DNA of 64,000 nucleotides from an uncultured virus (IMG/VR IMGVR_UViG_3300030339_000028) (IMGVR_UViG_3300030339_000028), one strand, 5' to 3'. Positions 462-61,682 are shown, numbered from the stretch's first letter. Notes: generated by a model not told the origin, from the sequence alone. Program-made: numbers and translations.

Positions 462-472
462 TATTTTAAGTC

Positions 473-12035: not shown

Positions 12036-12431
12036 ATGAACTCAGCCTCAGAAGATATAAAAGATATGTTAGTAGCAGAATCTGATCTAGGATTAGTATT
12101 CGCTACAAATTTGTTCATAGGACAAGAACCTGCAAAACCTTCTGAGACAGCAACTTTATTTGACTACTCAGTGATTCCGCCTCAGTTAACCCTAGATGGG
12201 GCAGGAATAGATAATCCATCTGTACAAGTTAGGGTAAGATCGACAGATTATCAAAAAGGATGGATTTTGGCAGAAATTATAAAGAACTCACTTCACGGCC
12301 GGGCACAAGAGACGTGGAATGGGACTTTATATTCTGTAATATACTGCTCCAGCGGACCAGCACTACTGGATTGGGATGAGAATAACCGGCCTCGTTTTAT
12401 TGTAAACTTTAATATTCAACGTAGATCATGA
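12036..12431 (+). CDS. Tail terminator (minor capsid family)
   Basis: ATG at 12036 preferred over TTG at 12006; PSVQVRVRS and DENNRPRFIVNF motifs. Confidence 0.75.
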   Translation: MNSASEDIKDMLVAESDLGLVFATNLFIGQEPAKPSETATLFDYSVIPPQLTLDGAGIDNPSVQVRVRSTDYQKGWILAEIIKNSLHGRAQETWNGTLYSVIYCSSGPALLDWDENNRPRFIVNFNIQRRS

Positions 12432-13039
12432 GTTCTGGAATTTATCAGATAAGGAATTTGGTAAACGGTAAACGGTATATTGGAAGCTCTTTAAATATTG
12501 AGAGAAGATGGAAACATCATTTGCAATGTTTAAAATTCAGTTATTCTAATAAGGTGTTACAAAAAGACTGGGATTTGTATGGTGCAGATGCTTTTGTTTT
12601 TGAAGTTCTGATTTACTGTGAACCTGATGAATTATTGTTAAAAGAACAGAAACGAATTGATCATTACAAAACACTTAGTCCCAATGGGTATAATAGATGT
12701 CCAATTGCAGGCAGTTGTGCAGGTGTTAAACATTCTGAAGAATACAAAAGAAATTTAAGTGAAAAATTAAAAGGAAACACAAATGGTCTAAATAACAAAG
12801 GCAAAGTGATTTCTGAAGAAACTAAACTTAAAATGTCTATAGCAGCTTCTTCAAGAAAAATATCTGGTATGTCAGGAAGAAAGCATTCTGAAGAATCCAA
12901 ACTTAAAATGTCTTTTTTAAAATTAGGAACTTCTAGTAAACGTAAAGGAAGCACTCTTTCTGAAGAAACTAAGCAAAAGATGAGGGATTCTCATAAAGGA
13001 CATAATCTTGGGATGAAGTATTGTAAGTATCCTTATTAA
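12428..13039 (+). CDS. Free-standing GIY-YIG homing endonuclease with NUMOD3 repeats
   Basis: SGIYQIRNLVNGKRYIGSS; repeated (H/I/L)SEETK.KM motifs. Confidence 0.9.
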   Translation: MSSGIYQIRNLVNGKRYIGSSLNIERRWKHHLQCLKFSYSNKVLQKDWDLYGADAFVFEVLIYCEPDELLLKEQKRIDHYKTLSPNGYNRCPIAGSCAGVKHSEEYKRNLSEKLKGNTNGLNNKGKVISEETKLKMSIAASSRKISGMSGRKHSEESKLKMSFLKLGTSSKRKGSTLSEETKQKMRDSHKGHNLGMKYCKYPY

Positions 13040-35103: not shown

Positions 35104-36042
35104 TTATCCTTTAATTACTTGTAGACAATTGTATGTGAGTTGTGGAAATCCGTTTGTAAAGTTAGGTTCCATAAAACACTCTAAAACCAGAGCACATTGC
35201 TCATCCCATTTGTTTAAAAGTATTGCTTGAGCATAACCTAACACAACCCTTCTGATTCCTTCAGGATCCTCTGTCTTAAGACCTCTTAAAACAGAATTAA
35301 CCTGTTGCCAATTAGATCCTTTTTTTGTCAATAATCTGGCAAGCTCTATTGCCTGAGATTGTATTGCTGCCTGTTGTTTAGCAGTTTCCAATCTGTCATC
35401 CTTATCAGCAGCAAGTACTTTTTCAAGTATGTTGATTGCAGCTCTAGGATGTCCAAGACTGTCTTGTATGATTTGTTCATACACTTCTTTGTCAACTTTC
35501 TCATCCTCAGCTTTAACAATACTTTTCAACAATCCCTTCATTTCTGTATCAGAAAGCACTTTAACCTGGAACTCTTGACACCTGCTTTTTACTGCCGGTA
35601 TTAATTTGTTAGGTTCTGTTGTACACAGAATGAAGTAAATGTGATCTGGAGTATCCTCAAGTATCTTTAATGAAGCATTCTGAGCATCATTTGTCCACTT
35701 ATGAACCTCATCAATTAAATACACTTTGCATCTGCCTGATGTTGGAGCATATTGTGAAGACTTAATAATGTCCCTAACAGAATCAATACCTCTAAAATCT
35801 GAGGAATTTATCTCTGTTAAATCATTACCTTTGCAACCTAATTTACTGGCCAGTATTCTTCCTAATGTTGTCTTTCCTGTACCTGTTTCTCCATGAAATA
35901 AAAATACATGAGGACAGGTGCTAGAATGAAGTACCATTTTATCTAAAATAGAAATTATTTCAGACTGACCTTTTACTTCTAAAAAAGATGTAGGACGATA
36001 TCTAATGTATAAAGGACCCACATTTGATTTTTCTTGATTCAT
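35104..36042 (-). CDS. dnaX: Clamp loader AAA+ subunit (DNA Pol III gamma/tau-like)
   Basis: YRP..F.EV.GQ, GETGTGKTT, IDEVH, LKILED and SRC motifs. Confidence 0.88.
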   Translation of the reverse strand: MNQEKSNVGPLYIRYRPTSFLEVKGQSEIISILDKMVLHSSTCPHVFLFHGETGTGKTTLGRILASKLGCKGNDLTEINSSDFRGIDSVRDIIKSSQYAPTSGRCKVYLIDEVHKWTNDAQNASLKILEDTPDHIYFILCTTEPNKLIPAVKSRCQEFQVKVLSDTEMKGLLKSIVKAEDEKVDKEVYEQIIQDSLGHPRAAINILEKVLAADKDDRLETAKQQAAIQSQAIELARLLTKKGSNWQQVNSVLRGLKTEDPEGIRRVVLGYAQAILLNKWDEQCALVLECFMEPNFTNGFPQLTYNCLQVIKG

Positions 36043-36886
36043 AATTAAATTTTATTAATTCTTGATAAAACTGTTGATGATATTCTCTATTATAGTTTGC
36101 TCTTACATTACAACTGACACATAAAGTAATCAAATTTTGATTATCACAATTTTTCTTGTTGTAATCTATGTGATGTACTGTTAGTGTGTCTGTAACATTT
36201 TTACAATTTACATTCTGACAAACATAACCGTCTCTTTCCTTAATTTCTAATCTCTTATCTTTATTCCAATCAGAAGAGTAAGGTAGTCTACCTATCCCAC
36301 CCTTCCAATTAGGATGTTTCTCATTTTTATTTCCAAACTTCTTTTTTTCTTCTTCAGAGTAAATTTTACCGTAATTAGGATTTAAAGATCCTATTTTTCT
36401 TAAACTACATTTTAAGATTGTTTCTTTACTATGACATCTACCTTTTCCAGAGTCACTTATTTTCTTTTTTGTTTCTTCTGTATGTAATATTCCTAATCTT
36501 GCATTTTTACAAATTGTTAAAGAATCCCCTTTATGAACCTTTCCATAAAAAGGGTTATTTTCTCCTTTACGAGATTCGCTTCTTTGTCTATATTGATCTT
36601 CCGTTAAATTTAAAGACACTCCTTTCTTAGAATTTGATATATTTAATCTGTGTGTTTCAGAAAGCTTTCTTCCTTTTAAAGAATCACTTATATTTTTACA
36701 AGATTCTACAGATCTCTTCTTTCCCTTATTTGAGACACTTCTTTTCAATTTTTGTTCGATGGACAATCCTGTGTAGATTCTATTATTACCAGTGTGGTGG
36801 TTAAAATTGTGCCCAGAAAGAAACCTTCTTCCTAAATTAATATACCCTCCGCATCCACAAGCACACATCGGTTTTAATTCATTCAT
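36002..36886 (-). CDS. HNH homing endonuclease with NUMOD3 repeats
   Basis: CACGCG, H.EETKKKIS repeats, HPNWKGG, RDGYVCQ, VHHIDY, NLITLC..C. Confidence 0.88.
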   Translation of the reverse strand: MNELKPMCACGCGGYINLGRRFLSGHNFNHHTGNNRIYTGLSIEQKLKRSVSNKGKKRSVESCKNISDSLKGRKLSETHRLNISNSKKGVSLNLTEDQYRQRSESRKGENNPFYGKVHKGDSLTICKNARLGILHTEETKKKISDSGKGRCHSKETILKCSLRKIGSLNPNYGKIYSEEEKKKFGNKNEKHPNWKGGIGRLPYSSDWNKDKRLEIKERDGYVCQNVNCKNVTDTLTVHHIDYNKKNCDNQNLITLCVSCNVRANYNREYHQQFYQELIKFNYESRKIKCGSFIH

Positions 36887-37121
36887 GTTGTTTAAAATTT
36901 AGTTTTTTTAATTGATAAGTAGTCATTTTTTTACAGGCATGAAGTCCGAAATTATAATATCCCATAAAACAAGGTTGTGGAAGTTGAGGTCCAATGTGAT
37001 TTGGACAATACTGTTTCCTTACAGCAGCCTCATACAAGACATACTCATACCCGTATTTATAAACAGAAATAATCTCTCGTCCATCTTCCGTAAATTTAAG
37101 GTTAGCCATAGTAGTAAGGTT

Positions 37122-38504
37122 TTAGTCTTTTATTTTCTCTGCAAAACTACCGTCTATTGGGTATTCTGCTATTTCGATTTCCATTGGTACAATAATCCAC
37201 TCAAATGCTTTTGGTAACTCTTTTGTTAAAATTTGATTAATGGTTTCTTTAATGTAGTCTTTTTCTGACGGATGCACATCTAAGACAATACTGTCATGGA
37301 TTTGTCCGACAAGTTTTGTATCCCATTTCTCTTTCTGCATCCTAGCATCTGAAGCAATAAAACTCCAAAGCAATGAATGGAAAGCAGATCCTTGTCCTGG
37401 GTAATTGCATACTTGTTTCTTGTCCATCAAACCAACACATCGGAATCCTGTAGGTATGTCAAAATACCCTTTCTTTTGATACTTTTTCCACCATTTGTCT
37501 TTCCACTCTGCATACTCAATAAATCTGTTACCCCAAAAGTCTTCCTCAGTCATTTTAACATGTTGAACAAATTTATCAAAGTTAGTTAAGTCTTGAGATA
37601 TTAAATGATCAGACAATTTAGCATCCCCAATTGGTATGCCCATCCCAGGTTTCCATTTCCCTTTTGGAAGCTCTCCCCAATGCCCGACTAAACCTTCAGC
37701 ACAATTTTTATAATAACTCCCATAAAACTCTGGAAACACGAAAGCGTTTTTCGCAGCCTGTCGCAACACCCCATGCCCAGTAATACTTTTATCTAGCTTA
37801 TCTAGTTTAAAGAGCTGCTCAGCCATGTCTCCGTGCATGTCAGTTGTAGGATCCTCAATGTACTTTATTAAGTTTTTGTCTTTGTTTATACAGGCATTTG
37901 AACGTACTTCAATCCCACTAAAGTCAGCCTCCATTAACATGTGTCCAGGTCTTGGATAAATTGCAGACCGAACAATCTTCATAGCCTCTTTGTCTCTGTT
38001 AGGCATATTTTGGAAGTTCGGGCTATCAGAACTGCTTCTAAATGTTTGTGCAAGGTGCAAGTTAAACACAGGATGGATGTACCCGTTGACTTGTTCTCGT
38101 TCAATTCCGTTTAAATAATCCCGAAGTTTTTTAAGCTGCTTTTTCTTTAGTAGCTCATTTAACTCTGGGATATTTAATTCCTTCATTGTTTCATCATTCG
38201 TAGATCCCTTCCCGCTTTTAGTTTCTCTTGGAGGTTTAATTCCTTTAGTCTTGTACAGAAAGTCTGCAAGCTGATCTCCACTATTGACGTTTATTGCTTT
38301 GGTAGAGGATTTAGTCCAGTCCTTAAAAAATGTAGTCTTTTTAAAGTCTGCATCTATACGTTCCATTTCAGAAGTCAAATACTCCTTTGTCTTAATAATG
38401 TAAGGCACGTCAACTCTCAATCCTTGTTGCTCTGCCCTAGATAAAGCCAGTACTCCGTCATGGAGTAGTTTATAGGCTTGAGGTGTTGTTGGACTAACAT
38501 TCAT
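37122..38504 (-). CDS. polA: Family A DNA polymerase, polymerase domain
   Basis: RSSSDSPNFQN, ADFSGIE (motif A), RQAAK...F...YG (motif B), QIHDS (motif C). Confidence 0.92.
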   Translation of the reverse strand: MNVSPTTPQAYKLLHDGVLALSRAEQQGLRVDVPYIIKTKEYLTSEMERIDADFKKTTFFKDWTKSSTKAINVNSGDQLADFLYKTKGIKPPRETKSGKGSTNDETMKELNIPELNELLKKKQLKKLRDYLNGIEREQVNGYIHPVFNLHLAQTFRSSSDSPNFQNMPNRDKEAMKIVRSAIYPRPGHMLMEADFSGIEVRSNACINKDKNLIKYIEDPTTDMHGDMAEQLFKLDKLDKSITGHGVLRQAAKNAFVFPEFYGSYYKNCAEGLVGHWGELPKGKWKPGMGIPIGDAKLSDHLISQDLTNFDKFVQHVKMTEEDFWGNRFIEYAEWKDKWWKKYQKKGYFDIPTGFRCVGLMDKKQVCNYPGQGSAFHSLLWSFIASDARMQKEKWDTKLVGQIHDSIVLDVHPSEKDYIKETINQILTKELPKAFEWIIVPMEIEIAEYPIDGSFAEKIKD

Positions 38505-38772
38505 GAAATTCTATTTGTTTTAGGTTTGCAGCTTTTACAATTTTAAAGAATCTTCTTTCTGCCTTTTTCCTGTCCAAGCAACTAGGCATTGTCTGAGCAT
38601 ACTGTAATTTATTCTCTTCTATACGTTTAAGACATTTCTGGTACGCTTGTTCATTACTCTCATGAGGATGACAAAGAAGCACAATAAAATTAGTACCTGG
38701 AAACATTGGGTAATTCCAATCCACTAATCTAATGTCTATTTTTTTAATTGTACATTTCATTACTGTTTTCAT
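38494..38772 (-). CDS. Hypothetical protein between the two polymerase halves
   Basis: 92-aa ORF overlapping both neighbours. Confidence 0.55.
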   Translation of the reverse strand: MKTVMKCTIKKIDIRLVDWNYPMFPGTNFIVLLCHPHESNEQAYQKCLKRIEENKLQYAQTMPSCLDRKKAERRFFKIVKAANLKQIEFHEC

Positions 38773-39977
38773 GGTATTAGACTTTTTTGTAACATTGCTA
38801 ATCTAAACTCATAAATAGAATCATAACCGCAGTAAATCAATAACTTTTCTTCCCCTCCCGGTATTTTAAGAAGTTCATCAATTTTATTAATTGCATTACC
38901 GTTATCATTGTCATCCGCTTTTAAATAAGGAGCAACTTCAGAAGCATAATCAACAACTCCGAATCTAACATACGTTTGGAACTTTACATTTGTGATTGAG
39001 GATCTGTTGTCTAAACAATGTGTCATTAACATTGTGTCCATGTGCCAATTGACTACAGGAGTCTTTAAACGTACACTAGACCATGTTTCCTCAAATTTCA
39101 TATTCTGTGCAATTTTCCTGACTTTAGGATTTAAAAGGAAATCAACAAAAGGCTGTCTTCCGTTCTTTGTCTTAGGCATCATAAATACATACGCAAAATC
39201 TTCACTGGTAGCAATAGAGCAACAAACAATACGGTGTCCTGGAGCATGAGGTTTGATGCCTGTTGTTTCATAATCAAATGCAGCAGTACCTCTGATCTTA
39301 GACAGTACGGACAAATCTTCAATAATTTTGATAGTAGGTTCTTTGTGTACAGGAAAAGGAACATCTAGACATTTGATTGCCTCTTTTAAATCCTCTTTCC
39401 AAATTACTGTCAATTCATCCCTTTGCCATTGATACACTTGCTTAGGTTCATAAGTTGGGCAAACCCAACATTTATAATCTTGATCAGGGATAGTCCAGCC
39501 CCGCCACTTGTCAATTTTATCTAAGTCCTTCTTCCAACGATGTCCTATGAGGCTGAATAAAGCTGAATTCCCGAGGATAATTATTAGCTTAGGCTTTTTA
39601 TCCTCTATTAACTTTAAAAGCGTTTTTCGGCAGCATTCTACCTCATAATTAGTTGGTATGCGGCAACTGTTTTCCTTGTCCTCAACATAGCAGCGGCAAG
39701 CATTAATGCTCAAGCAATCTTTAAAAAGATCAACACCTAGATTTTCTAAAGTCCTTTCTAACAGTACACCGTATCTGCTTTGGAAAGGTTTACCTACTCT
39801 ATCATCAATCTTTTCTATTCCGGAACCTACAATAAGGATTTCTTTCTCAAAATCCCCGAAAGCTTCCATCCTAGAATGATCACAAGTTTTATAGGCTCCA
39901 CATGCAATGCAGGTATATTTCCTACCTCCTGGACGATCTTTAGATTCTGTTTCTTTTTGTGAAAAGAAGCCGGTCAT
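38769..39977 (-). CDS. Family-4 UDG-like domain fused to 3'-5' exonuclease (N-terminal half of a SPO1-type DNA polymerase)
   Basis: CIAC, GKPF, NACRC, P...EVECC and PKLIIILGN (UDG-F4); AFDYETTG, QNMKFE and YCGYD (Exo I-III). Confidence 0.85.
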   Translation of the reverse strand: MTGFFSQKETESKDRPGGRKYTCIACGAYKTCDHSRMEAFGDFEKEILIVGSGIEKIDDRVGKPFQSRYGVLLERTLENLGVDLFKDCLSINACRCYVEDKENSCRIPTNYEVECCRKTLLKLIEDKKPKLIIILGNSALFSLIGHRWKKDLDKIDKWRGWTIPDQDYKCWVCPTYEPKQVYQWQRDELTVIWKEDLKEAIKCLDVPFPVHKEPTIKIIEDLSVLSKIRGTAAFDYETTGIKPHAPGHRIVCCSIATSEDFAYVFMMPKTKNGRQPFVDFLLNPKVRKIAQNMKFEETWSSVRLKTPVVNWHMDTMLMTHCLDNRSSITNVKFQTYVRFGVVDYASEVAPYLKADDNDNGNAINKIDELLKIPGGEEKLLIYCGYDSIYEFRLAMLQKSLIP

Positions 39978-42555: not shown

Positions 42556-43626
42556 TTAGGTATTTTTAAGTGATAAAACATACTCTGCATTCTTTTCGTA
42601 GAAAAAGGATCTAAGAGTTCCTTTTAATTTAGAGATACTTTCAACAGCAACACCTTTCCAAAACTCATCCTCTTCACTTTTGCTTAATATTCCAGCAAAG
42701 TAAAAAGTCATGTATTGTGGACATTCTCCTTGTACAGGTGGTGTTGATTGCCTAGTGTGCATACTCCAGGGCCAGTTTGGAACTGTTTCCTGTATAACTT
42801 CAGAGAACATGAGATAATTCCAAACAACTCGTTGGATAATACTTGCTCCTAATTGATCAATAGTCATCCCATACTTCTCAAGACGTTTGTCAAATGCTTT
42901 TTTGGTATGCTTACTCATTCCTCCCAGCCAATTACCTGCTTGAGCTTCTAAACCAAACCCACATTCATTTTCTTTAATGATTTTAGGTCTAGCAGATACT
43001 TGGAAAGTACTTATCGGATTTTCTTTATCCTCGATCGGAATTACAATAGACCCGAAGTTAGCAAGTTTTCTGCAAGTTGCACTATCCACAGAATACCAAG
43101 AGTAACGCTTCATTAAAGGTAAACTGGTACAAGCAAATCCATGAAGCTTAACTTTTGGAAATCCGTCACTGTCTAATAAATGATCTTTAAACAGTTTATC
43201 AAGCAAAGGGATTAAAACACTTGTCGGGTTAGGTACAAGACCTCCGATTGCTATGTAGTCATAAGACTTGAGATAACGCTCTAACCATTTTACGTCATTC
43301 CCTAAATGCCAAACAGGAATAGGGTGCAAGCCTGCCTCCTCAAGAATCTTTTGATTTCTGTAGGTAAGCTGCGGATTGTTAATAACGTCTAAGTTGGAGT
43401 AAACATTAACTTCGTCACTATGTTTCAGCATGAAATCAATGTAAGATTGTCTATATGCTGCATACTCCGGTTTGTCTACATATGAGTAATCATCAAATTT
43501 ACGTTCACTCATTTTAGTACCCATTATGCCTTTAGCATCAGATAATACATTCCTTGACAACTTGTTGTACAAAGAAGGTGCACCGCAGTCAATAAAGACT
43601 TTGTAATCGTAGATAGAATGTTTCAT
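42556..43626 (-). CDS. dpdA: DpdA-like / TGT-fold guanine transglycosylase (DNA 7-deazaguanine insertion)
   Basis: FIDCGAPS, NLDVI, PIPVWH, YIAIGGLV, KLHGFA and YSVDSAT motifs; clustered with folE/queD/queE. Confidence 0.75.
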   Translation of the reverse strand: MKHSIYDYKVFIDCGAPSLYNKLSRNVLSDAKGIMGTKMSERKFDDYSYVDKPEYAAYRQSYIDFMLKHSDEVNVYSNLDVINNPQLTYRNQKILEEAGLHPIPVWHLGNDVKWLERYLKSYDYIAIGGLVPNPTSVLIPLLDKLFKDHLLDSDGFPKVKLHGFACTSLPLMKRYSWYSVDSATCRKLANFGSIVIPIEDKENPISTFQVSARPKIIKENECGFGLEAQAGNWLGGMSKHTKKAFDKRLEKYGMTIDQLGASIIQRVVWNYLMFSEVIQETVPNWPWSMHTRQSTPPVQGECPQYMTFYFAGILSKSEEDEFWKGVAVESISKLKGTLRSFFYEKNAEYVLSLKNT

Positions 43627-44648
43627 AATTCTCGTATGATTTTAATCATGTTTGGAATAGCATCCTTTCCTTTCTTCATAATAGTGTAATGTTGTTGATT
43701 CATGGATAAGTCAGGGTAGTACAAAATAAGCATCCTGATTCTGTCTACTAAATCACATTCACAATCATATTTAAAAATAGGAAGATACATTTCGGAATAA
43801 GACAGTCTGTTTGGTACAAGTGGTAAGCATCCACATATAACAGATTCTTGCATAGCAATACCCCAGGTCTCTTGATCAGCAAACGATACAGAAATGTATG
43901 CTTTTTGAAGTATTTGGTAATACCTGTCTTTTGTGTCACAGAACTTCTTTGTCATACAAAAGTTCCAATCAGAAAACTCATCCTCTAAGTCTGCTTTAAG
44001 TTTATTAAACATTTGAGGATTCTTTTCTGCATCAAGTCTGTGAGGAAATACAATAATCTTTTCCCGATTAGTATATTCTCTTGTAAACTCTGGGTTGATA
44101 AAATCCGTATAGAATGGAAACCCTGTTACTTCAATCTTATTAGGATTTTTCCACATCCTTGTTTTAATGAGCAGTCTTTTATGGAACTCTGTAGCAACAA
44201 AAATCTTGTCTACAATCCCATTAAGCCAACCCATCTCCATGTGCTCTGCCCAAGGAGTCATTCCTTTTTTATTCAAAAAGTCAAACTCGTCGTAACTGCC
44301 TGCATGAAGGCATCCGCAAATCTTGAGATACTTTAGACCTAACCCTTCTCGGATGTATGCAATAGTCTCAAGCCCAGGAAACCAAAGATCATGAAAAAAC
44401 AATACTATTTTTTCTTCCTTATCATACCCAGACAAAAATTTTAGTATCATCTGGAGTTGCGATGTTTTGTACTGATTTGTTTCAATAACATCCAAGAAAC
44501 TGCCACTGTTAATTTTACCACTTGTTTCCTGTCCGTAAACATGAACAACATCTAAGCCTGAGGTTTCAAAAGCAGCTTTAAACCACTTGTCCCATTGTGT
44601 TGAGTATCGCTCCTCGAGCGGCTCAATAGGAATATTGAGTATTACCAT
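43623..44648 (-). CDS. GT-B (GT4-like) glycosyltransferase
   Basis: IIVFPHRL..EK.P and QETWGIAMQES...GC.PLVP; start set at ATG 44648. Confidence 0.8.
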   Translation of the reverse strand: MVILNIPIEPLEERYSTQWDKWFKAAFETSGLDVVHVYGQETSGKINSGSFLDVIETNQYKTSQLQMILKFLSGYDKEEKIVLFFHDLWFPGLETIAYIREGLGLKYLKICGCLHAGSYDEFDFLNKKGMTPWAEHMEMGWLNGIVDKIFVATEFHKRLLIKTRMWKNPNKIEVTGFPFYTDFINPEFTREYTNREKIIVFPHRLDAEKNPQMFNKLKADLEDEFSDWNFCMTKKFCDTKDRYYQILQKAYISVSFADQETWGIAMQESVICGCLPLVPNRLSYSEMYLPIFKYDCECDLVDRIRMLILYYPDLSMNQQHYTIMKKGKDAIPNMIKIIREL

Positions 44649-44658
44649 TTTAAATAAA

Positions 44659-46014
44659 TTATTTAATGATTCCGAAACGTGCAAGGATGGCAAAAGTGAT
44701 AGCCATCTGTGTTTTTACATACGTAGATTCCCCGTATATGTAATCGCCTACTGTCATCCCGATTTCAATGTCCTTTGTAGGAAGTGTTACATTGTATAAG
44801 TTTAAATAAGGGAAGGCTGATTCAAGCAAATTCGGGCTGTATTCAGTAATGACACTCTCGAGGAAACTATGAGGCAAATATGAAGGTACTAACCTAATAG
44901 GTCTTTCTGTTAAAGTCATTCCTTTTTTATTGGCAGCATTATCGATCGAGGTTCCTTCGTATCTCTGGAAGAATTGTCCTAGTCCGCCTTTTGTACCATT
45001 TGTTCGAAGTCGACCAACAACCTCTTCCATCTCAAACCCATTCTCCAGCATAAACTCTCCTGTCTTGTTCAAAGACTTAATTGTCTCCCCAGGAAAGAAT
45101 GTAAGCAGCAACCAGAATATTTTAAATGGCAGCATGTGTTGAATTGCAGCTAAGTTTTCACAATCATCTAAATCTTTTCCTTGTCCCATAGATTGTGAAA
45201 CTTTTGCATCTCCGGATTCAAATCCAATCTCAATAATTTCCAGTCCGGCATTTTTGATAATATCTACACCGTATTTATCAATAAAAGCAAGCACCTTGTC
45301 TGAAGATCCTAATGCAATCAGATGCATTTCTTTTCCGTTTAAATACAACAGGATTTCTCTTGCTCTGTCAATGTCATAAAAGAAATCCTCATCCGTAAAA
45401 TGGATGTTCTTAATTTCTTGTTTAGTACACATTATGAGCATATTGAAAACATCCTTTAAAGGAAGTTCAATTCTACGTTTACCACAGTTAGTAGTCGATG
45501 GACAAAAAGCACATCCGTTCGGACAACCGTAAGATGTAAACAGCGGGTAAACTTTCTCATCTTTGTCCAAGTGTTTGAGGTGCATGTCACAATCACTTAA
45601 AAGTAATCTTTTAAAATGAGAATAATAAACCGGGTACATCAACATTGCTGTTTTAAGACTGTTTTCATCTTGTAAAGGATCAAACCCCAATGTCAATTCT
45701 ATATGAGGTAATCCTAACTGTTTAATCAGCGGAGTGTACCCTACAAAGAATACATTATTTTTACCATACATAAAGGGCAACATTTGTGCCAGTAACGTCG
45801 CAGTTTCTATCTGTGGGTAAGACCACAAACATACTATTTGAACAGCAGCGTCTGTTATTAAGTCAAGATCCTCAGGCTGGAAGCTTTCGTACAAAGTTAC
45901 ATCATTTGTAGGTGCTAAAAAGTTGTAACAAAGGTAAGGGGCGTAGCAAAATGATCCGCGATTGAATTCAGTCGATGAAGGATCGATTATGTTTATTTTT
46001 AAATATTTTTGCAT
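44659..46014 (-). CDS. Radical SAM enzyme with N-terminal cobalamin-binding-like domain (class B architecture)
   Basis: TSYGCPNGCAFC (CxxxCxxC), FTDEDF and IGFESGD; ~150-aa Rossmann-like N-domain. Confidence 0.78.
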   Translation of the reverse strand: MQKYLKINIIDPSSTEFNRGSFCYAPYLCYNFLAPTNDVTLYESFQPEDLDLITDAAVQIVCLWSYPQIETATLLAQMLPFMYGKNNVFFVGYTPLIKQLGLPHIELTLGFDPLQDENSLKTAMLMYPVYYSHFKRLLLSDCDMHLKHLDKDEKVYPLFTSYGCPNGCAFCPSTTNCGKRRIELPLKDVFNMLIMCTKQEIKNIHFTDEDFFYDIDRAREILLYLNGKEMHLIALGSSDKVLAFIDKYGVDIIKNAGLEIIEIGFESGDAKVSQSMGQGKDLDDCENLAAIQHMLPFKIFWLLLTFFPGETIKSLNKTGEFMLENGFEMEEVVGRLRTNGTKGGLGQFFQRYEGTSIDNAANKKGMTLTERPIRLVPSYLPHSFLESVITEYSPNLLESAFPYLNLYNVTLPTKDIEIGMTVGDYIYGESTYVKTQMAITFAILARFGIIK

Positions 46015-46026
46015 CGTTTTAATTTT

Positions 46027-46356
46027 TTAATCTTTATAAATCTCAGCGCCATTTTCCCCGTCCTCAAAGACAGACACAAAATCAGCATTAAACTTTTCCA
46101 TTAATTCCCAAGATATCATTTCACAAGACTTTTCTTTTAAATGTTTGTCTCTGTATTTCTCAGAAATAAAAGAGTCTATTTTCATCTTCTCTGATATAAA
46201 CTCAACATCCCTATCCATGTGCTTTATTTTAAACTTCATGGTAACATGGAAAACGTGTCTGTGAGCAGATGCTAAATAATAAACTTCTGGAATGTTGCAT
46301 GAGGGCCAGTTATGTGTGGCTGGAAAACTTGTTGTGATTACTACAAATTTTTTCAT
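46027..46356 (-). CDS. QueD-paralogous T-fold protein, DpdL-like
   Basis: H.W, LASAHRHVFHV (LxxxHRHxF), DRDVEF, SCEM and V.EDGENGA. Confidence 0.65.
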   Translation of the reverse strand: MKKFVVITTSFPATHNWPSCNIPEVYYLASAHRHVFHVTMKFKIKHMDRDVEFISEKMKIDSFISEKYRDKHLKEKSCEMISWELMEKFNADFVSVFEDGENGAEIYKD

Positions 46357-46628
46357 TTTATTACTTTTTCAAATACATGGAAGATTAATTTTCCAATCAG
46401 CAATTGATATGTACCAATGTAAACTAAATTGTCTGCATCTGGTATATCATGTCCGGTACCGTATGTGTAGATGATTCTTGTTTCCAATGCAGCAACAGCA
46501 TCATCTACAAGTGCCCAGATACAAGGAGTGTCATTTTGTGTTTGAACACAAAGTATTTTTGAATCTACAGGAAGATCAATAAACTGATTCTTTATTGTTT
46601 CCAATGAGTATTTGTAAATTGTCTTCAT
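46353..46628 (-). CDS. Small conserved phage protein
   Basis: MKTIYKY.L...ILCVQ.Q...CIWALVD...GTGH...YIGTYQ...FHVFE. Confidence 0.65.
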   Translation of the reverse strand: MKTIYKYSLETIKNQFIDLPVDSKILCVQTQNDTPCIWALVDDAVAALETRIIYTYGTGHDIPDADNLVYIGTYQLLIGKLIFHVFEKVIK

Positions 46629-47173
46629 TTTATCATTTGCATTAATTCTGCCTTAGCAGCAGCATTGGTAAAAAACTCTCCCTTCATCGAAGAAGTAACC
46701 ATAGTTGAACCTTGTTTACCTACTCCTCGCATTCTCATGCACATATGACAAGCTTCAATAATACAAGCAGCACCTTTAGGTTGCAGATATTGCATTAGAG
46801 CGTCTGTTACCTGTTCTCCAATACGTTCTTGGATTTGCATCCTACGGGAAAACATATCTACAAGTCTTGCAAGTTTAGAGATCCCAATAACATGTTCCCC
46901 GGGTATATAAGCTACATGAGCAACTCCGTAAAAAGGAAGCATGTGATGTTCACACATACTGTAGATTTCAATATCTTTTAATAAAACAATTTGATTGTAA
47001 GTACCTACTTCAAACACAGTAAGCAAGTCTGCAGGATCTTTTCCATAGCCAGAATATAACTCACCCCAGGACTTAACAATGCGATTTGGAGTGTCTAACA
47101 GCCCTTCTCTAGTTGGATCTTCACCAATATACGACAATTGATCCGCAATTATCTGAACGATAGTTCTTTGCAT
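46625..47173 (-). CDS. folE: GTP cyclohydrolase I
   Basis: REGLLDTPNR, SMCEHHMLPF, GISKLAR, QIQER and HMCM.MRG. Confidence 0.95.
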   Translation of the reverse strand: MQRTIVQIIADQLSYIGEDPTREGLLDTPNRIVKSWGELYSGYGKDPADLLTVFEVGTYNQIVLLKDIEIYSMCEHHMLPFYGVAHVAYIPGEHVIGISKLARLVDMFSRRMQIQERIGEQVTDALMQYLQPKGAACIIEACHMCMRMRGVGKQGSTMVTSSMKGEFFTNAAAKAELMQMIK

Positions 47174-47185
47174 TTCTTAAAGTTT

Positions 47186-47220
47186 AAAAAATAAGGGAAG
47201 ACAGTCACGAACTTCCCTTA
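47186..47220 (-). terminator. Intrinsic terminator
   Basis: TAAGGGAAG-N11-CTTCCCTTA followed by TTTTT on the minus strand. Confidence 0.7.
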
Positions 47221-47247
47221 CTTAGATTTAAATAAAAATTGGATGGA

Positions 47248-48075
<828 letters not shown>

Positions 48076-48447
48076 TTTAACGAATTTTTAATGATTAATG
48101 ATTAATTCAATACTAATTAACAAGTCTTAAGTATAAGGATAAAAATTAGTCTTCTATTGCCTTAGGGATGTTTTCTACAACATCTTCCAAAGAATAAATT
48201 ATATCCTCAAGTAGAGCAGCCGTTTGGGCATATTTTTGGCCCTCAATAGTAGCCTGATCCTCTTCCGATAAATTGGCAAAGGATTGTATTTCATCGTCTT
48301 TTATTTCTGTTAATAAATTTTTAGCAGTTTTAACAAGACTGGAAACTTTATTTAATAATTCTGACTTTTCTTTTTCCATAGAATTAATGTGTAAAAAATG
48401 AACCGTAAATAACCCTTTCGTAATATGCTGTAACTTTTTGTTCATTT

Positions 48448-49224
48448 TTAAATCCCGATTTTCTTCCCCCATACAATAATGTGTTCTCTGGTACAATATC
48501 TTACCTCATGTTTTATAGCCATCTCAATAACCATTTCTCTGTTTGCTTCAATGTCCTCTTTTGTAGAGCCTTGAGGCATCAAAATGATTTGTTCTCTTTG
48601 AATAATACCTGTACTGAGATATAAACAATCTATCTCATCCCATTCTTTTTGACTGGTAATAACAAATTTAAACCAAGAGTTATTTAAAGCAGCTAAAGTT
48701 TCTAAGATTGCAGGTTTGTAACATACATCTACATCATTGCCAGAATTGGAAAGTTTAGGAGAATTGTTCCAACATGAGATGTAATGCACCAATTCATCCA
48801 TCGGCTTGATAGTACATTCATTCTCTATCTCAATATAAGGACAGAATGAGTATCTTTTGATAAACTCATTAATAAAATTCAGCACAGACATCTGCTGACA
48901 TAACGGGCTTCCTCCTGTAAGTACTAGATGTTGCCCGTGCAATAATTTGTTTGGTAAACCGCAGACATCCATTAGACAAAACAACTCTGCAAACGTATAA
49001 GGATTTCCTTGCCTCCATACTTCCGTAGTATCACACCAAGTACAATCCAATACACATCCTTTCAATCTTAAAAAGGCTGCAGGAACTCCTGCGTTAACAC
49101 CTTCTCCTTGAATAGAGTCGCAAAAGAATTCCGACACATGGAGTATGTGTGCTTTAGGTAACCTTCCACTTTCAATAATCTTAGTAAAGGTTGGAAACGC
49201 TTTGATTATTTGAGTAGCTTCCAT
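48448..49224 (-). CDS. queE: 7-carboxy-7-deazaguanine synthase (radical SAM)
   Basis: SIQGEG...G.PAAFLRLKGCVLDCTWCDT, VLTGG.P, SPKLSNSG and FKFVI. Confidence 0.92.
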   Translation of the reverse strand: MEATQIIKAFPTFTKIIESGRLPKAHILHVSEFFCDSIQGEGVNAGVPAAFLRLKGCVLDCTWCDTTEVWRQGNPYTFAELFCLMDVCGLPNKLLHGQHLVLTGGSPLCQQMSVLNFINEFIKRYSFCPYIEIENECTIKPMDELVHYISCWNNSPKLSNSGNDVDVCYKPAILETLAALNNSWFKFVITSQKEWDEIDCLYLSTGIIQREQIILMPQGSTKEDIEANREMVIEMAIKHEVRYCTREHIIVWGKKIGI

Positions 49225-49227
49225 TGT

Positions 49228-49587
49228 TTACTTTTCTAAAGAGTAACGAGCATTCGTTTTCGGTGTCTCAGAAATCTCAATTGCATTTAACTGTGGTAAA
49301 CTCAATTTAAAAATCTGGTAGATGTGCATTGACATATTCTCAGCAGTAGGATTAAAGTCAAACACATCATTAAGATGTTTGTGATCCATTGTTTCATCAA
49401 TCCATTGTTTGATGTAGTCAAGTCCTCTGTAATCAAATACAAAGCCTACATCATTTAGATTGTCTGAGATTAACTCTACTCTAATAACGTAGTTATGGCC
49501 GTGTAATCTGGCACAAGGGTGTTCCTTTGGTAGTCCGTTTAATACATGACTAGAACAACAGGTAAACTCTTTTGTAATTTTGAACAT
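49228..49587 (-). CDS. queD: 6-carboxy-5,6,7,8-tetrahydropterin synthase
   Basis: CARLHGHNY, DHKHLND, PTAEN and ETP. Confidence 0.93.
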   Translation of the reverse strand: MFKITKEFTCCSSHVLNGLPKEHPCARLHGHNYVIRVELISDNLNDVGFVFDYRGLDYIKQWIDETMDHKHLNDVFDFNPTAENMSMHIYQIFKLSLPQLNAIEISETPKTNARYSLEK

Positions 49588-49616
49588 GATTTTCTATTTT
49601 AGTGTTATTAATGTTT

Positions 49617-49771
49617 CAATAAGGTGTGGGCTTTTGACACCCACACCGGAAAACTACTGCCTCTTAGGCTGCGGCTTTCATTTGATAATCGTTGCCGATT
49701 GTAATCAGAACATTCTTTGTGAATTAAATCACTAATTACTCACCTTATTGCTGTCAAAACCAGGCTGCCCC
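49617..49771 (-). ncRNA. ssrA: Permuted tmRNA, coding piece; tag (A)GNDYQMKAAA*
   Basis: 5' end GGGGCAG-CCTGGTTTTGAC at 49771; tag frame GGC AAC GAT TAT CAA ATG AAA GCC GCA GCC TAA at 49696-49664; 3' boundary approximate. Confidence 0.85.
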
Positions 49772-49874
49772 GTTATAAATACTCTGATGTGCCACGTTTA
49801 GATGACGAACTACACCTGTTGCCTTCAGAGTAAACCGTACTAAAGTGACGGGTTAACTTCTCTTGACGGAACTG

Positions 49875-49930
49875 TGGAGCAGGGCGGAATCGAACCGCCG
49901 TCCAAACAACAGACTCCGTAATCAGAATGA
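49875..49930 (-). ncRNA. ssrA: Permuted tmRNA, acceptor piece
   Basis: GGAC-GGCGG-TTCGATT-CCGCC-CTGCTCC-A; CTGCTCC pairs with GGGGCAG giving G3.U70; lies upstream of the coding piece; 5' boundary approximate. Confidence 0.85.
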
Positions 49931-49935
49931 ACTTG

Positions 49936-50063
49936 TGGAGGGGAGGAGAATCAAACTCCTCAGTGATGTTCCGTGTCCGAGCAGACTTAAGCAAATCCCG
50001 TCTGTTAACCATCTACGTTGCGGCCGCGTTACCGCAGGCACATTACCCATTTTGATACCCCCC
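49936..50063 (-). ncRNA. Atypical 128-nt tRNA-like RNA with G3.U70 (Ala-type) acceptor stem
   Basis: 5' GGGGGG pairs with 3' CCCTCC-A; T-arm-like GAGGAG-TTTGATT-CTCCTC; internal hairpins but no canonical anticodon arm. Confidence 0.55.
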
Positions 50064-50076
50064 GATTAAAAATTTG

Positions 50077-50191
50077 TGAGACTACCAGGACTCGAACCTG
50101 GAACTGAGGAACCATATATCAGCACGGCTATTCTTAAACCTCAATGTCCGAACTGTTTTAGGTTGGTGTCTGCCAATTCCACCATAGTCTC
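50077..50191 (-). tRNA. Atypical 115-nt tRNA (Leu-type D arm; anticodon not assignable)
   Basis: Acceptor GAGACTA/TAGTCTC-A, D arm GTG-GAATTGGCAGA-CAC, T arm CCAGG-TTCGAGT-CCTGG; short anticodon stem and very long extra arm. Confidence 0.7.
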
Positions 50192-50468
50192 GTGTAATAC
50201 GTTTGTAAAGCAAGTGTACATATAAAAATTTAGATAGTTACATAGAATGCAAATTATTTTTTGGCTTACCTAAAAATAAATTCAAGGAGCAACTACTCCT
50301 TTAATATTTCTAACTCCTCTGTAATAAATAAATTTTGCAAGATCTTCTGGAGTAGCTGTATCTAATAATAAAAGTACTCCAAACTACTCTGATCTCCAGA
50401 CATTTGAATTAGGATTTGAGAATCCCATTTTCAGTAGAATTTCCTGTGTTTCTTTCATAATTATAAAT

Positions 50469-58964: not shown

Positions 58965-61682
58965 TTATTTTTGGTAAGATTTAATAAGTTCCATTAGTAA
59001 GGATTCTGCAGGTGTACGTTTACCATCTAATATACCGTCTACAATTTGACGTTTCTTATCTAGTAAAGCTGCAATCTTTTCTTCAATTGTACCTGCTGCA
59101 ATCAATTTATAATTGGTACAGGCATTCTTTTGTCCAATCCTGTGTATTCTGTCGTCTGCTTGATCATGTACACCTGGGGTGTATTGATATTCAATTGTTG
59201 CTGTGGACCAAGCTGCGGTTAATGTTAAACCTACTCCTGCAGGATTTCCAGCAGCATCTAACATCCCAACAAATAATTTAATTCTAACGTCTGTCTGAAA
59301 TGATGTTACTGCTTTGTCTCTGTTTGATTGATTAACACCTCCATCATACCTAACAGATATCTTTGGAAATGCTGTCATTATAGCATCAATTGTCGCTGTA
59401 TGAGTACAAAACAATACAAGCTTCTCACCTGAGTCAATAAACTCTTCTATCCAAGATATAACATTAGCCATTTTACCTTTTACAGCCAATTGTTTTAAAG
59501 CATTAATCTGACCTAATGTTTCTGCATTGGAAGCTCTAATTGCTGCGGCAGTACCTTTCGTTTCACTTACCCATTTAATAAAGTTTCGTTCTGCATAAAC
59601 ATACTCAGCCCAATTGTCTAACTCAATAGGTACAAAAGCTGTCTGTTTGTCTGGCAAATCTTTTGCAACATTTACCTTCAGTCTTCTTAACATGACAGTA
59701 CTTGTCAGTTTCCTGTGCAACTCTTCAACATTAGAAGCACCTTGTACATTTGTACCCCATATAGATTTCTTAGCATCACAATAACGCTTCGTAAATACAA
59801 AATAAGAACCTAATACAGTAGGATCTATCATTGATACAGCATTGTATATTTCAATCGGTCTGTTAAGTACAGGAGTACCAGATAAACCAATAATGTGTTC
59901 TACAACTTTACCTAATTTCTTAGCAGCCTTTGTTCTTTTAGCAGCACCGTTTTTAATACAATGTACCTCATCCATTATTAGGATCTTTGGCTTAATCTTA
60001 ATCAAATAAGGTACCCAAGCTTCTAAAATGTCATAATTAAGAATAAGAATCTTTCCAGTCGTTTTGTATGGAGTTCTTCCTGTTAATACTTCTGCCTGAG
60101 AATTAGGTATCCAATTAAATGTTTCTCTTAGCCAGTTAAGTTTTAAAGAAGCAGGAACGACAATGATTGCTGTCCGAAGTTCTTTATGCAGTTGTAGGTA
60201 AGCTAAAGCCTGGACAGTATTATGTGTCAATATACAATGTTCTGTGACATATAAATGATCCTTTGTGTCTACAGAAATGCAGAAACATAAATCTGTTTTT
60301 ACATACTCTATTTTTGTGATAGCTCTTGCAGGACTGTATTTTACTTTCTCTTTACAAGAGGTTCTTTTTCTTATGCAAAAGAAAGGATTATTTCCTTTCG
60401 GCATCATTATTGTGAGTGAATGAGCTATCTTTCCTATTTTCTTGTCTCCATTTGGACAAACTTGTATTCCAGGATAGGATTTCTTTCTTGCAATACCTCC
60501 AAAAGACTCAACTAAAAAAACAACATCGTCACATAATTGTTCCGAAACAGACGTAAATTGAATAACTCCAGATTTTAAACTTGCATAACCGTCTGTATCA
60601 AGAAGTCCTCTTAATAGTTCAGCTCTTTGTTCTATAGAACCAAATTTATAATCATCAGGAATATACTTGTATTCTGAAGTAACATTTAATCTATACTTTC
60701 TGATAATGTTTTTTATTTCATTAATTTTAGACTTGTCTTTTGGATTTGTATGCACTACATGGAAATCACAATTCTCACCTTTGTCTTTTTTCAATGTGTA
60801 CCCCAATGGAAGCAGTTCGTTTCCAACTCTTTCAATAATATCAGAATCTGTGTTAGAAAAACAAACTCCTTTAGAAATACCTCCGTCACCTAATAAAGCA
60901 CCCATTGTGTATGGAGGAATAATTAATTTCCTTTCTGGAAAGTCAATTGCATCAGAAAGCATAGGTATAAAGACTAAATTAGCCTTAGATTTCTTATCTG
61001 ATTTTAATTGCATTTTCATAATTTCTTTTAATGGAAAAGTCTTACTAGGAAATCCCATCCATTTGTCTCTAGGAGAGTAAATCGTCCATAAATGGTCTTC
61101 ACAACATTCTACAGAAGTTTTATCAGAAAATGTAACCTTATACACTTTCTTATTTCCTTTATTGTAGATTCCTTTTAACTTATGAGATATTCCATCAGAT
61201 CCAAATACTTGATCTTTTAAAGAAAGATTACCTATCTGCTTCCATCCAGAAGGTGTTAGTACTTTGGTGTACCAAGGTTGTGCTTTACCCAAGCCCATCT
61301 CATCTGCAATTAAACATCTACCATTCTTAGCATCAATAAAACTAACACCAATATTTTGAAACGGTCTTAACGTCCCTTTTAATCCTGGTATTTTAATTTC
61401 CTTGACATCTGTGATAGATACTTTTGAGCGATCTAGGATAGCTTGTAAATTAGAATCAAGTTTAAATCCCCATTCTGCTAGAAGTTCCAATGAAGGAACA
61501 TCTACAGGACATGTCCAGTATTTACCTTCTGGATAGTATTTTCGTTCCCTTAAACCTCGTACCCTATTAAGGTCTTCTTGGTTGTAGGGAAACTCAATTC
61601 TACAAACAGGTGTACCGTTTTTAAGCTCTGCTAGTTTCACAGCTTTTTCAGCGTTACTTTTTGTAGGAGTACTGTTATACAT
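58965..61682 (-). CDS. SNF2/SMARCAL1-like helicase interrupted by an intein
   Basis: LRPFQ, LIADEMGLGK|T, VVPASLKLNW, MDEVH, LSGTP..NRP.E, GVGLTLT and QADDRIHRIGQ. Confidence 0.9.
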   Translation of the reverse strand: MYNSTPTKSNAEKAVKLAELKNGTPVCRIEFPYNQEDLNRVRGLRERKYYPEGKYWTCPVDVPSLELLAEWGFKLDSNLQAILDRSKVSITDVKEIKIPGLKGTLRPFQNIGVSFIDAKNGRCLIADEMGLGKAQPWYTKVLTPSGWKQIGNLSLKDQVFGSDGISHKLKGIYNKGNKKVYKVTFSDKTSVECCEDHLWTIYSPRDKWMGFPSKTFPLKEIMKMQLKSDKKSKANLVFIPMLSDAIDFPERKLIIPPYTMGALLGDGGISKGVCFSNTDSDIIERVGNELLPLGYTLKKDKGENCDFHVVHTNPKDKSKINEIKNIIRKYRLNVTSEYKYIPDDYKFGSIEQRAELLRGLLDTDGYASLKSGVIQFTSVSEQLCDDVVFLVESFGGIARKKSYPGIQVCPNGDKKIGKIAHSLTIMMPKGNNPFFCIRKRTSCKEKVKYSPARAITKIEYVKTDLCFCISVDTKDHLYVTEHCILTHNTVQALAYLQLHKELRTAIIVVPASLKLNWLRETFNWIPNSQAEVLTGRTPYKTTGKILILNYDILEAWVPYLIKIKPKILIMDEVHCIKNGAAKRTKAAKKLGKVVEHIIGLSGTPVLNRPIEIYNAVSMIDPTVLGSYFVFTKRYCDAKKSIWGTNVQGASNVEELHRKLTSTVMLRRLKVNVAKDLPDKQTAFVPIELDNWAEYVYAERNFIKWVSETKGTAAAIRASNAETLGQINALKQLAVKGKMANVISWIEEFIDSGEKLVLFCTHTATIDAIMTAFPKISVRYDGGVNQSNRDKAVTSFQTDVRIKLFVGMLDAAGNPAGVGLTLTAAWSTATIEYQYTPGVHDQADDRIHRIGQKNACTNYKLIAAGTIEEKIAALLDKKRQIVDGILDGKRTPAESLLMELIKSYQK
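60219..61283 (-). mobile_element. Intein (355 aa, Ala1, class 3-like) with LAGLIDADG endonuclease
   Basis: Inserted in Walker A GLGK|T; AQPW start, CCEDHLW, MGALLGDG, LRGLLDTDG, CFCISVD and ILTHN end. Confidence 0.9.

Follow-up and report, generated by a model that had tools for sequence, protein, structure and literature searches.

Does the 64,000-nucleotide (nt) stretch of DNA from the uncultured virus IMGVR_UViG_3300030339_000028 (hereafter the window, meaning the whole stretch that was analysed) encode a working two-piece transfer-messenger RNA (tmRNA), the RNA that frees stalled ribosomes, and, if it does, where did the permutation of its gene arise? The question was raised by a reading made from the sequence alone, which placed a circularly permuted tmRNA gene of Bacteroidota type on the minus strand of the window and took it for an independent permutation in a phage. 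Comparison with Rfam models, related viral genes and other assemblies confirmed, at the level of sequence, that the locus is a real circularly permuted tmRNA gene in a tailed phage. We hold with good confidence that it is a functional two-piece tmRNA gene, belonging to a phage-borne lineage with a tRNA-like domain and a tag of Bacteroidota type.

Identification of the permuted tmRNA gene

ARAGORN called a permuted gene ('tmRNA*') at 49573-49966(-), with the tag GNDYQMKAAA*, identical to the tag that had been proposed. The Rfam model RF04321 (tmRNA_permuted) matched the window over the full model, positions 1-213, with 66.6 bits (gathering score 47; E 1.2e-10). These were the checks suggested by the sequence-only reading, and both supported the permuted order. 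The best lineage-specific Rfam model was beta_tmRNA (RF01850), which aligned in full, including the terminal hairpin, but scored below its gathering threshold (43.9 bits against 84; E 1.4e-11); the alpha and cyanobacterial matches were outcompeted.

The two modules stand in permuted order on the minus strand, the 3' one preceding the 5' one, and all of the features that had been named were found on this strand where they had been placed (Table 1). The acceptor halves GGGGCAG and CTGCTCC form the claimed stem of seven pairs with G3.U70, and the 5' module continues from GGGGCAG into CCTGGTTTTGAC, which ends at 49753. The gene is small, with pieces of about 59 and 149 nt. As only 16 nt separate the stop codon from the terminal hairpin, and 35 nt the hairpin from the next gene start, there is no room for pseudoknots 2 to 4 (pk2-4), in agreement with what had been said of a coding piece of about 150 nt. 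CCA is absent from the gene sequence, the trailer being CAG, i.e., only the first C is encoded. The kind of gene found here is already recognised by standard tools and by GenBank. A same-strand open reading frame (ORF) of 79 aa, running across the acceptor piece and the spacer (50012-49773), was judged spurious because it was of low complexity and had no PHROG match at E<=0.1.

A family of permuted genes with covarying halves

A scan of viral sequences for the 5' signature GGGGnnGnnTGGTTTTGACAG gave at least 119 loci, 80 of these with full flanks. Among the 119 loci listed, ARAGORN classified 26 as permuted and 45 as standard, and made no call for 48. A gapped pattern (T loop/acceptor, 88-118 nt, GGGG..TGGTTTTGAC) picked out five viral contigs besides the identical copy of the window gene, all of which passed RF04321 with 58-68.5 bits. 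When both motifs were used as anchors over 134 viral sources, 44 were permuted, 53 standard and 37 neither; the 44 permuted sources corresponded to 32 distinct genes, 31 of them with a complete 5' arm. Spacer length ranged from 18 to 182 nt in these 31 genes and was 266 nt in the 32nd.

Family members begin with the conserved block AGTTCGTTGA, have TGTTTGGAC before the T arm and GACAGCAA after the 5' acceptor strand, and reach the GGC resume codon through an A-rich stretch ending in ATAAC or AAAC. Their tags mostly read GK(T/V)I...RAVA or G(E/K)QVE.AMAA, and a hairpin follows soon after the stop codon in most members. Among the matches listed, 20 of the 26 permuted viral genes called by ARAGORN had a tag starting with Gly, and most tags ended in A, VA or AA. 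In the window gene, the 5' end carries TGGTTTTGACAGC, TGTTTGGAC precedes the T arm, the resume codon is one for Gly, and the stop is closely followed by a hairpin; the 5' block is only partly kept, as AGTTCATTCTGA.

Covariation was scored on the 31 genes, aligned by reference with no structure imposed (alignment A2), over 18 pairs corresponding to the acceptor stem, the T arm and the proximal part of helix P2 (P2a). Overall, 92.5% of cells were paired, versus 46-55% in slid controls, and the covariation score was 0.461, versus 0.075-0.115; none of 500 shuffles was as high on either measure. The acceptor stem was 100% paired, its halves being separated by the spacer and in reversed order. The informative columns are acceptor positions 5 and 6, the T arm and P2a only. 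The two free acceptor positions varied as AU22/GC7/UA2 and GC10/CG9/AU8/UA3/GU1, the T arm was 98.7% paired (changes on both sides in 4 of the 5 pairs), and P2a was paired in 78.5% of cells (changes on both sides in 5 of the 6 pairs). The comparison with related phages that had been suggested thus revealed covariation in all three helices.

The distal part of P2 was compared by duplex energy, because a column-by-column alignment was impossible. Each 5' arm was paired with its own coding segment and with those of the 30 others: the cognate mean was -10.24 kcal/mol, versus -7.59 kcal/mol for non-cognate partners, and none of 10,000 permutations was as low. This supports a distal P2 for the family, not for the window itself. 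The P2 pairing originally proposed was therefore upheld in its proximal part, AGCAATA with TGTTGTT, by the covariation seen in relatives; its distal part, GTAATTAG with CTGATTAC, exists in the window but does not stand out among non-cognate partners, as detailed below.

Closer relatives of the window gene were few. Using blastn against GenBank phages, the window tmRNA had no match at E<=0.001, and the nearest virus record, a 33.6-kb fragment (G001), had no RF04321 match. When metagenomes were scanned for sequences close to the coding piece, the identical copy alone came up. The sole match in a search with the 29-nt sequence of the T arm and acceptor strand was an unclassified contig from a metagenome-assembled genome (MAG), which carries a permuted tmRNA of its own (L261, 6.9 kb; gene at 164-540 (-), tag ANDAFFLQAANA, same 29 nt). 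This contig may be phage DNA binned with a bacterium.

The spacer differed in content between members. In the window, it folded no better than shuffled sequences (z -1.22) and an Rfam search of it returned no family at E<=1. It shares a 23-nt hairpin motif, AACCCGTCnCnTTAGTACGGTTT (49851-49828, -), with the spacer of one relative (L103), and other subgroups of the family have common spacer motifs of their own. A complete tRNA gene was found inside the spacer in 2 of the 31 relatives: tRNA-Ala(TGC) in L011 (532-605 (-)), 4 nt past the acceptor end and 11 nt before G1, and tRNA-Glu(TTC) in L082, 3 nt before G1. In several members, including the window, tRNA or tRNA-like genes directly precede the acceptor piece.

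Gene order in other assemblies

A permuted order could also result from an assembly error or from the chance juxtaposition of tRNA gene fragments, and this stretch is indeed rich in tRNA genes, with two tRNA-like elements just upstream. The stretch was present in 19 DNA runs of peat metagenomes, four of which may be its source; contigs of three of the others were compared with it. A 552-nt contig of the independent run X8 spans 49484-50035 with zero differences, and two contigs of run X5 cover both sides. Two more assemblies, the viral contig L001 (100% identity) and the metagenome contig L262, hold identical copies, perhaps from the same sampling campaign. We take the gene order to be real because the X8 contig spans the whole gene unchanged, bearing in mind that the runs may belong to one campaign; the assembly check set by the sequence-only reading was thus passed. 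As the order recurs in 30 other phages, where the two halves covary, an artefact is extremely improbable. Neither the gaps in cover by runs X5 and X12 nor the short, high-depth matches that long contigs from other organisms gave at 49874-49908 have any bearing on the gene.

A relative of the coding piece was found in a marine metatranscriptome library (X23). A 241-nt contig matched 49595-49772 (175 of 178 positions identical) and departed from the window on both flanks, the match starting one base before G1 in the orientation of the gene. The RNA library of another habitat thus contains a close relative of the coding piece, although the contig is possibly DNA. Downstream, this contig has what appears to be a different gene start in place of QueD.

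Bacteroidota signature and probable host

To place the tRNA-like domain and the tag, we scanned bacterial genomes, one per species, for the 5' signature, which gave at least 120 loci. Among the matches listed, 78 of the 80 titled loci carried names of Bacteroidota genera; the two exceptions were MAG contigs labelled Bifidobacterium and Rhodanobacter. Over the 120 listed loci, ARAGORN called 68 genes, all standard and none permuted; the 52 loci without a call include 40 without full flanks. The tag began with Gly, as in GENNYALAA, in 65 of the 68 called genes (among the matches listed). None of 151 genomes sampled from the phylum of one locus reached the RF04321 cut-off, and the best six of 21 sub-threshold matches were ordinary one-piece genes. 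Six other genomes of this sample had Ala-initial tags. The earlier statement that Bacteroidota tags begin with Gly hence describes the genes with this 5' signature but not every genome of the sample.

The host and phage consensus sequences share GACAGC and TGTTTGGAC, neither of which was forced by the search pattern, and the Rfam consensus of the classical two-piece forms differs at these sites. CCA was encoded in 3 of 70 host genes and its first C in 70 of 70, the same C being invariant in the phage family. The lack of an encoded CCA, rightly noticed in the window, is thus no peculiarity of it. The motif TAnnTTTG ended 1-8 nt before the conserved start in 6 of the 31 family members, versus about 0.2 expected; TTTG/TAnnTTTG is the Bacteroidota promoter consensus (-7 box). 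The nearest phage homologues of the window's QueE were those of Chryseobacterium phage MA9V-3 (49.8%) and of seven Cellulophaga phage records (39.7%). Taken together, the signature matches, the Gly tags, the shared motifs, the first C, the promoter motif and the QueE homologues make a Bacteroidota host likely for the window phage, and the tRNA-like domain and tag match those of Bacteroidota one-piece genes, as had been proposed. The frequency of TAnnTTTG in the whole window was too weak to serve as a further host clue (107 occurrences versus 87 +/- 8 expected; reached by 2 of 100 shuffles). Among genome contigs, the portal had no prophage relative.

Folding of the coding piece and evidence for function

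The coding piece folded better than most shuffled sequences (z -2.68; 2 of 200 shuffles as good), and a predicted hairpin holds the stop codon of the tag in its loop. The decamer TTCTGATTAC occurs twice, in the 5' arm of the acceptor piece (49927-49918) and just upstream of the resume codon (49710-49701), so that GTAATTAG (49739-49732) has a possible partner both in trans and in cis. This duplication was not seen in other family members.

Several observations weigh against a working tmRNA of this lineage. In the window, the distal P2 duplex GTAATTAG/CTGATTAC has an energy of -8.7 kcal/mol and ranks only 16th of 31 against non-cognate partners, and the minimum-energy cofold uses the cis copy of CTGATTAC for GTAATTAG, closing the coding piece on itself because this sequence also occurs in cis. 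No convincing first pseudoknot (PK1) was seen by eye, only nested folds having been computed and no pseudoknot-aware search run. Among 69 scanned ORFs (out of 100 of >=90 aa; the 31 dropped ran against the direction of their gene block or lay inside longer ORFs), neither SmpB, nor a CCA-adding enzyme, nor an RNA ligase was found, and the lack of SmpB counts here. G3.U70 is present in 31 of the 31 permuted phage genes, but the invariance of the first four acceptor pairs, G3.U70 included, is no evidence because the search patterns fixed them. The other copies of the exact window gene (L001, L262) are all identical to it and so give no covariation signal specific to this phage. The X23 contig cannot show RNA ends, may be DNA and derives from a relative; the window tag ends in KAAA, versus the host-like ALAA; and comparisons of the portal, DnaB and DNA polymerase gave no host signal.

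Some of these points would suit a relic or a decoy, that is, a non-working tmRNA whose tRNA-like domain titrates SmpB and blocks host trans-translation. Such inhibition by a tag-less tmRNA-like RNA is described for mycobacteriophage DS6A in the available parts of PMC4131195 and PMC11915505, and the weak distal P2, the unusual KAAA ending and the second tRNA-like element directly upstream, with a G.U at its third pair, are consistent with it. On the other hand, the tag frame is intact, with the resume codon of the family and an Ala-Ala-Ala end, and tags are kept open in the 26 relatives called by ARAGORN (among the matches listed). P2a, needed only for joining the coding piece, covaries, and a relative from the library of another habitat has kept 98% of the coding piece unchanged. 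We consider a relic or decoy very unlikely and prefer a functional gene.

Origin of the permutation

The sequence-only reading had proposed an independent permutation in a phage. Since the organisation is shared by 31 genes, as well as by Maribacter phage Panino and the crAss-like phage cr50_1 (see below), such an event would concern not a single phage but, at best, the whole lineage; on that scale, an independent permutation in phages is plausible, not proven. In the fuller form of this scenario, which we regard as evenly balanced between right and wrong, the genes would form a phage-only lineage, derived from a one-piece tmRNA of Bacteroidota by a permutation separate from the alphaproteobacterial, betaproteobacterial, cyanobacterial and mitochondrial events. 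The molecule would also have shrunk to about 210 nt, losing any pseudoknot downstream of the tag and perhaps every pseudoknot, and in the window the coding piece could, owing to the duplication of TTCTGATTAC, alternate between a closed hairpin in cis and pairing in trans with the acceptor piece.

Alternatively, the gene may have been captured from a classical two-piece lineage, of betaproteobacterial type or similar, and have converged later on Bacteroidota features, because it must work with the SmpB, alanyl-tRNA synthetase (AlaRS) and ribosome of the host; no independent permutation would then have taken place. The best lineage-specific model for the window is, as seen above, the betaproteobacterial one, aligned over its full length with the terminal hairpin, and a true beta-type phage tmRNA (L002, 148.7 bits) matches it exactly over the 29 nt of GGAC, T arm and acceptor strand and closely resembles it at the 5' end. 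Signatures can also converge, the tRNA-like domain being short and conserved across bacteria. Nevertheless, 43.9 bits is far under the beta cut-off, and the relatives reach only 31-36 bits, through the tRNA domain alone. Nor is the 29-mer a lineage marker, because it is also carried by a one-piece phage tmRNA, L003. Finally, TGGTTTTGAC, GACAGC, TGTTTGGAC and Gly-first tags are common to these genes and Bacteroidota one-piece genes and absent from the classical two-piece Rfam consensus. Capture therefore appears unlikely, and descent from a Bacteroidota-type one-piece tmRNA is the simpler reading of the sequences. The L003 gene (406-630 (+)) is itself short for a one-piece tmRNA gene, at 225 nt, with the ARAGORN tag GNSQNAFALAA and an RF00023 score of 49.2 bits (cut-off 47).

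The window locus by itself adds little, and the lineage is the more interesting part. If the proposed origin is true, tmRNA permutation happened repeatedly, and viruses join bacteria and organelles as places where it occurred. These genes would be among the smallest tag-encoding tmRNAs, with a spacer acting as an open site that is occupied by tRNA genes in some members. Pseudoknot-poor molecules of about 210 nt would help to define the minimal parts needed for trans-translation, and would therefore be good material for structural and synthetic work. Finding such a gene could also help to predict that an uncultured phage has a Bacteroidota host.

Proposed maturation and mode of action

From the gene order, features, family membership and covariation observed, we infer the following processing and functional steps. 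A single transcript would run from the upstream promoter through two tRNA-like elements, the acceptor piece, the 103-nt spacer and the coding piece to the terminal hairpin. Host tRNA-maturation enzymes would cut this precursor, with RNase P acting before G1 (49771) and 3' trimming after the discriminator A (A73, 49875). The host CCA-adding enzyme would then have to supply CCA, since the gene, like the tmRNA genes of the hosts themselves, encodes no more than its first C. Maturation by tRNA enzymes fits the family, because tRNA genes lie in two spacers and tRNA or tRNA-like genes precede the acceptor piece.

The two RNAs would be held together by the 7-bp acceptor stem and helix P2. Host AlaRS would charge the molecule with alanine via G3.U70, host SmpB would deliver it to stalled ribosomes, and translation would resume at GGC, so that the stalled peptide would gain (A)GNDYQMKAAA. 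What the phage might gain, and here we only guess, is that ribosomes are kept free during infection, when host mRNA decay or RNA-cutting defences yield non-stop messages. The KAAA ending might, as another option, alter what becomes of the tagged proteins, and the backing up or redirecting of host trans-translation suggested by the sequence-only reading is a further conjecture.

Genomic context

The window was characterized as the genome of a tailed phage by genes for a portal, head proteins, a tape-measure protein, a tail tube, a family A DNA polymerase, DnaB, a primase and RecA. The tmRNA gene sits between a 7-deazaguanine gene set and DnaB. This DNA-modification set lies directly downstream of the tmRNA (42559-49587 (-)) and comprises an ORF resembling a DpdA-like queuine tRNA-ribosyltransferase, a radical SAM ORF, FolE, QueE and QueD. 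On the other side, DnaB is followed downstream by a short unannotated stretch and then by a terminator-like hairpin (about 50302-50272), after which the RNA cluster and its putative promoter begin.

Two tRNA-like elements precede the acceptor piece. For the first (50077-50191), ARAGORN made no call in default mode; in intron mode it gave a tRNA-Leu(aag) of 95 nt with a 21-nt insertion in the anticodon loop, and the Rfam alignment contains two insertions of about 25 nt. Its fold was not significantly better than shuffles (z -1.30). The second (49936-50063) combines acceptor-like strands GGGGGG/CCCCTCC, with a G.U at the third pair and a discriminator A at 49936, with a T-arm-like AGGAG-TTTGATT-CTCCT and an internal GNRA-type hairpin, and lacks an anticodon arm. 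Rfam matched only a T-arm fragment of it, with no family match, and its fold was likewise not significantly better than shuffles (z -0.90). The only other copy found was in the same phage.

Elsewhere in the window, two ORFs (38772-39977 and 37125-38504) together make up the family A DNA polymerase, with a NUMOD3 ORF (36005-36886) next to them. A LAGLIDADG domain lies within an SNF2 helicase ORF (58968-61682 (-)), and a GIY-YIG/NUMOD3 ORF lies among the tail genes (12428-13036 (+)). The NUMOD3, LAGLIDADG and GIY-YIG ORFs, together with the split polymerase (36005-39977 (-)), look like signs of homing endonucleases.

Table 1. Features of the permuted tmRNA gene and of its surroundings in the window, in order of position for the neighbouring genes and in gene orientation for the RNA cluster.
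Feature	Position	Strand	Sequence or description	Basis
FolE	46628-47173	-	7-deazaguanine set	
QueE	48451-49224	-	7-deazaguanine set	
QueD	49231-49587	-	7-deazaguanine set	
Promoter-like element	50225-50253	-	TTTG (50253-50250), 17 nt, TAAATTTT (50232-50225); upstream of the RNA cluster	inferred only
tRNA-like gene with extra sequence	50077-50191	-	115 nt	Rfam tRNA, 35.4 bits (cut-off 29)
tRNA-like element	49936-50063	-	about 128 nt; ends 2 nt before the acceptor piece	sequence
Acceptor piece	49875-49933	-	about 59 nt before CCA addition; 5' end inferred from family conservation	sequence, RF04321 alignment, family alignment
5' arm of the acceptor piece	49933-49904	-	starts AGTTCATT	window version of the family block AGTTCGTTGA
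Distal P2 candidate, acceptor piece	49918-49925	-	CTGATTAC; candidate partner 49739-49732	sequence
P2a strand, acceptor piece	49906-49911	-	UGUUGU; partner GCAAUA, 49751-49746	alignment register, covariation
GGAC lead-in	49903-49900	-	GGAC	sequence
T arm	49899-49883	-	GGCGG-TTCGATT-CCGCC	sequence
Acceptor 3' strand	49882-49876	-	CTGCTCC	sequence
Discriminator	49875	-	A	sequence
Spacer	49772-49874	-	103 nt; expected to be removed in maturation	sequence
Coding piece	49623-49771	-	about 149 nt	sequence, ARAGORN, Rfam
Acceptor 5' strand	49771-49765	-	GGGGCAG	sequence
Motif after the acceptor 5' strand	49762-49753	-	TGGTTTTGAC	sequence
P2a strand, coding piece	49751-49746	-		sequence, covariation
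Distal P2 candidate, coding piece	49739-49732	-	GTAATTAG	sequence
Cis copy of the distal P2 partner	49708-49701	-	CTGATTAC	sequence
Tag frame	49696-49664	-	GGC AAC GAT TAT CAA ATG AAA GCC GCA GCC TAA = GNDYQMKAAA stop	ARAGORN; Rfam alignment ends GCCUAA
Terminal hairpin	49647-49623	-	GGTGTGGG-TGTCAAAAG-CCCACACC, then TTATTG; likely transcript end of the coding piece	sequence, fold

Comparison with known systems

The earlier list of organisms known to have two-piece tmRNAs had omitted phages and needs correction. The available part of PMC9004378 describes a two-piece tmRNA in the OM43 phage Melnitz and gives 53 of 133 unique phage tmRNAs as two-piece according to ARAGORN; among the 53 permuted entries in Table S1 of that study is Cellulophaga phage phi4:1, with a Bacteroidetes host, given as 'Permuted'. 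The phages of that study (Melnitz, pelagimyophages, cyanophages) resemble the window in carrying phage-encoded two-piece tmRNAs found by ARAGORN. They differ from it in that their genes, according to the same text, belong by lineage with those of present or past hosts (alpha, beta/gamma or cyanobacterial), and in the glutamine riboswitch of Melnitz. The part of PMC11915505 available to us puts the number of phage tmRNAs at 79 and states that the sequences used to build RF04321 were of alpha, beta and cyanobacterial origin. Our literature search returned no paper describing a two-piece lineage of Bacteroidota phages as such; the taxon breakdown of the tmRNA database may list it.

Closer counterparts come from phages in sequence databases. 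The ssrA gene of Maribacter phage Panino (PP540027, 27557-27889), a phage of a cultured flavobacterial host, is permuted like that of the window, scores 63.9 bits with RF04321, encodes a Gly-first tag, GKVMNVSFAPTVRQFA, and sits among tRNA genes. It differs in its short spacer and longer tag, and blastn detected no similarity to the window gene at E<=0.001. In the available text of PMC11590407, it is treated as a tmRNA gene and possible attachment site, without mention of permutation. The crAss-like phage cr50_1 (MT774375, Crassvirales), and likewise L013, share with the window the permuted order, the Gly-first tag, a long spacer and membership of a group of Bacteroidota phages. The cr50_1 gene is annotated as tmRNA in GenBank and called permuted by ARAGORN, with the tag GNNFVTDYTAIGA; its 5' end reads GGATTTGAC versus GGTTTTGAC, its spacer is about 200 nt long, and a tRNA-like gene follows the coding piece. 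Permuted tmRNA genes of this kind are thus widespread in Bacteroidota phages, to judge from the sequences compared, and are annotated in databases already.

With the classical two-piece tmRNAs (RF01849 alpha, RF01850 beta, RF01851 cyanobacterial), the window gene has in common the gene order, the joining of the pieces by the acceptor stem and P2, and a removed segment. It differs from them in scoring below all cut-offs, in its smaller size, in having no space for a pseudoknot after the tag, in its Gly-first tag and in its 5' end, UGGUUUUGAC. The one-piece tmRNAs of Bacteroidota, in contrast, are made in one piece, with a median of 394 nt among the genes collected, versus about 59 + 149 nt here; yet it is with these that the window gene shares GGGGnnGnnTGGTTTTGACAGC, TGTTTGGAC, the T loop, a trailer that starts with C without encoding CCA, and Gly-first tags such as GENNYALAA and GNDYNYQLAA.

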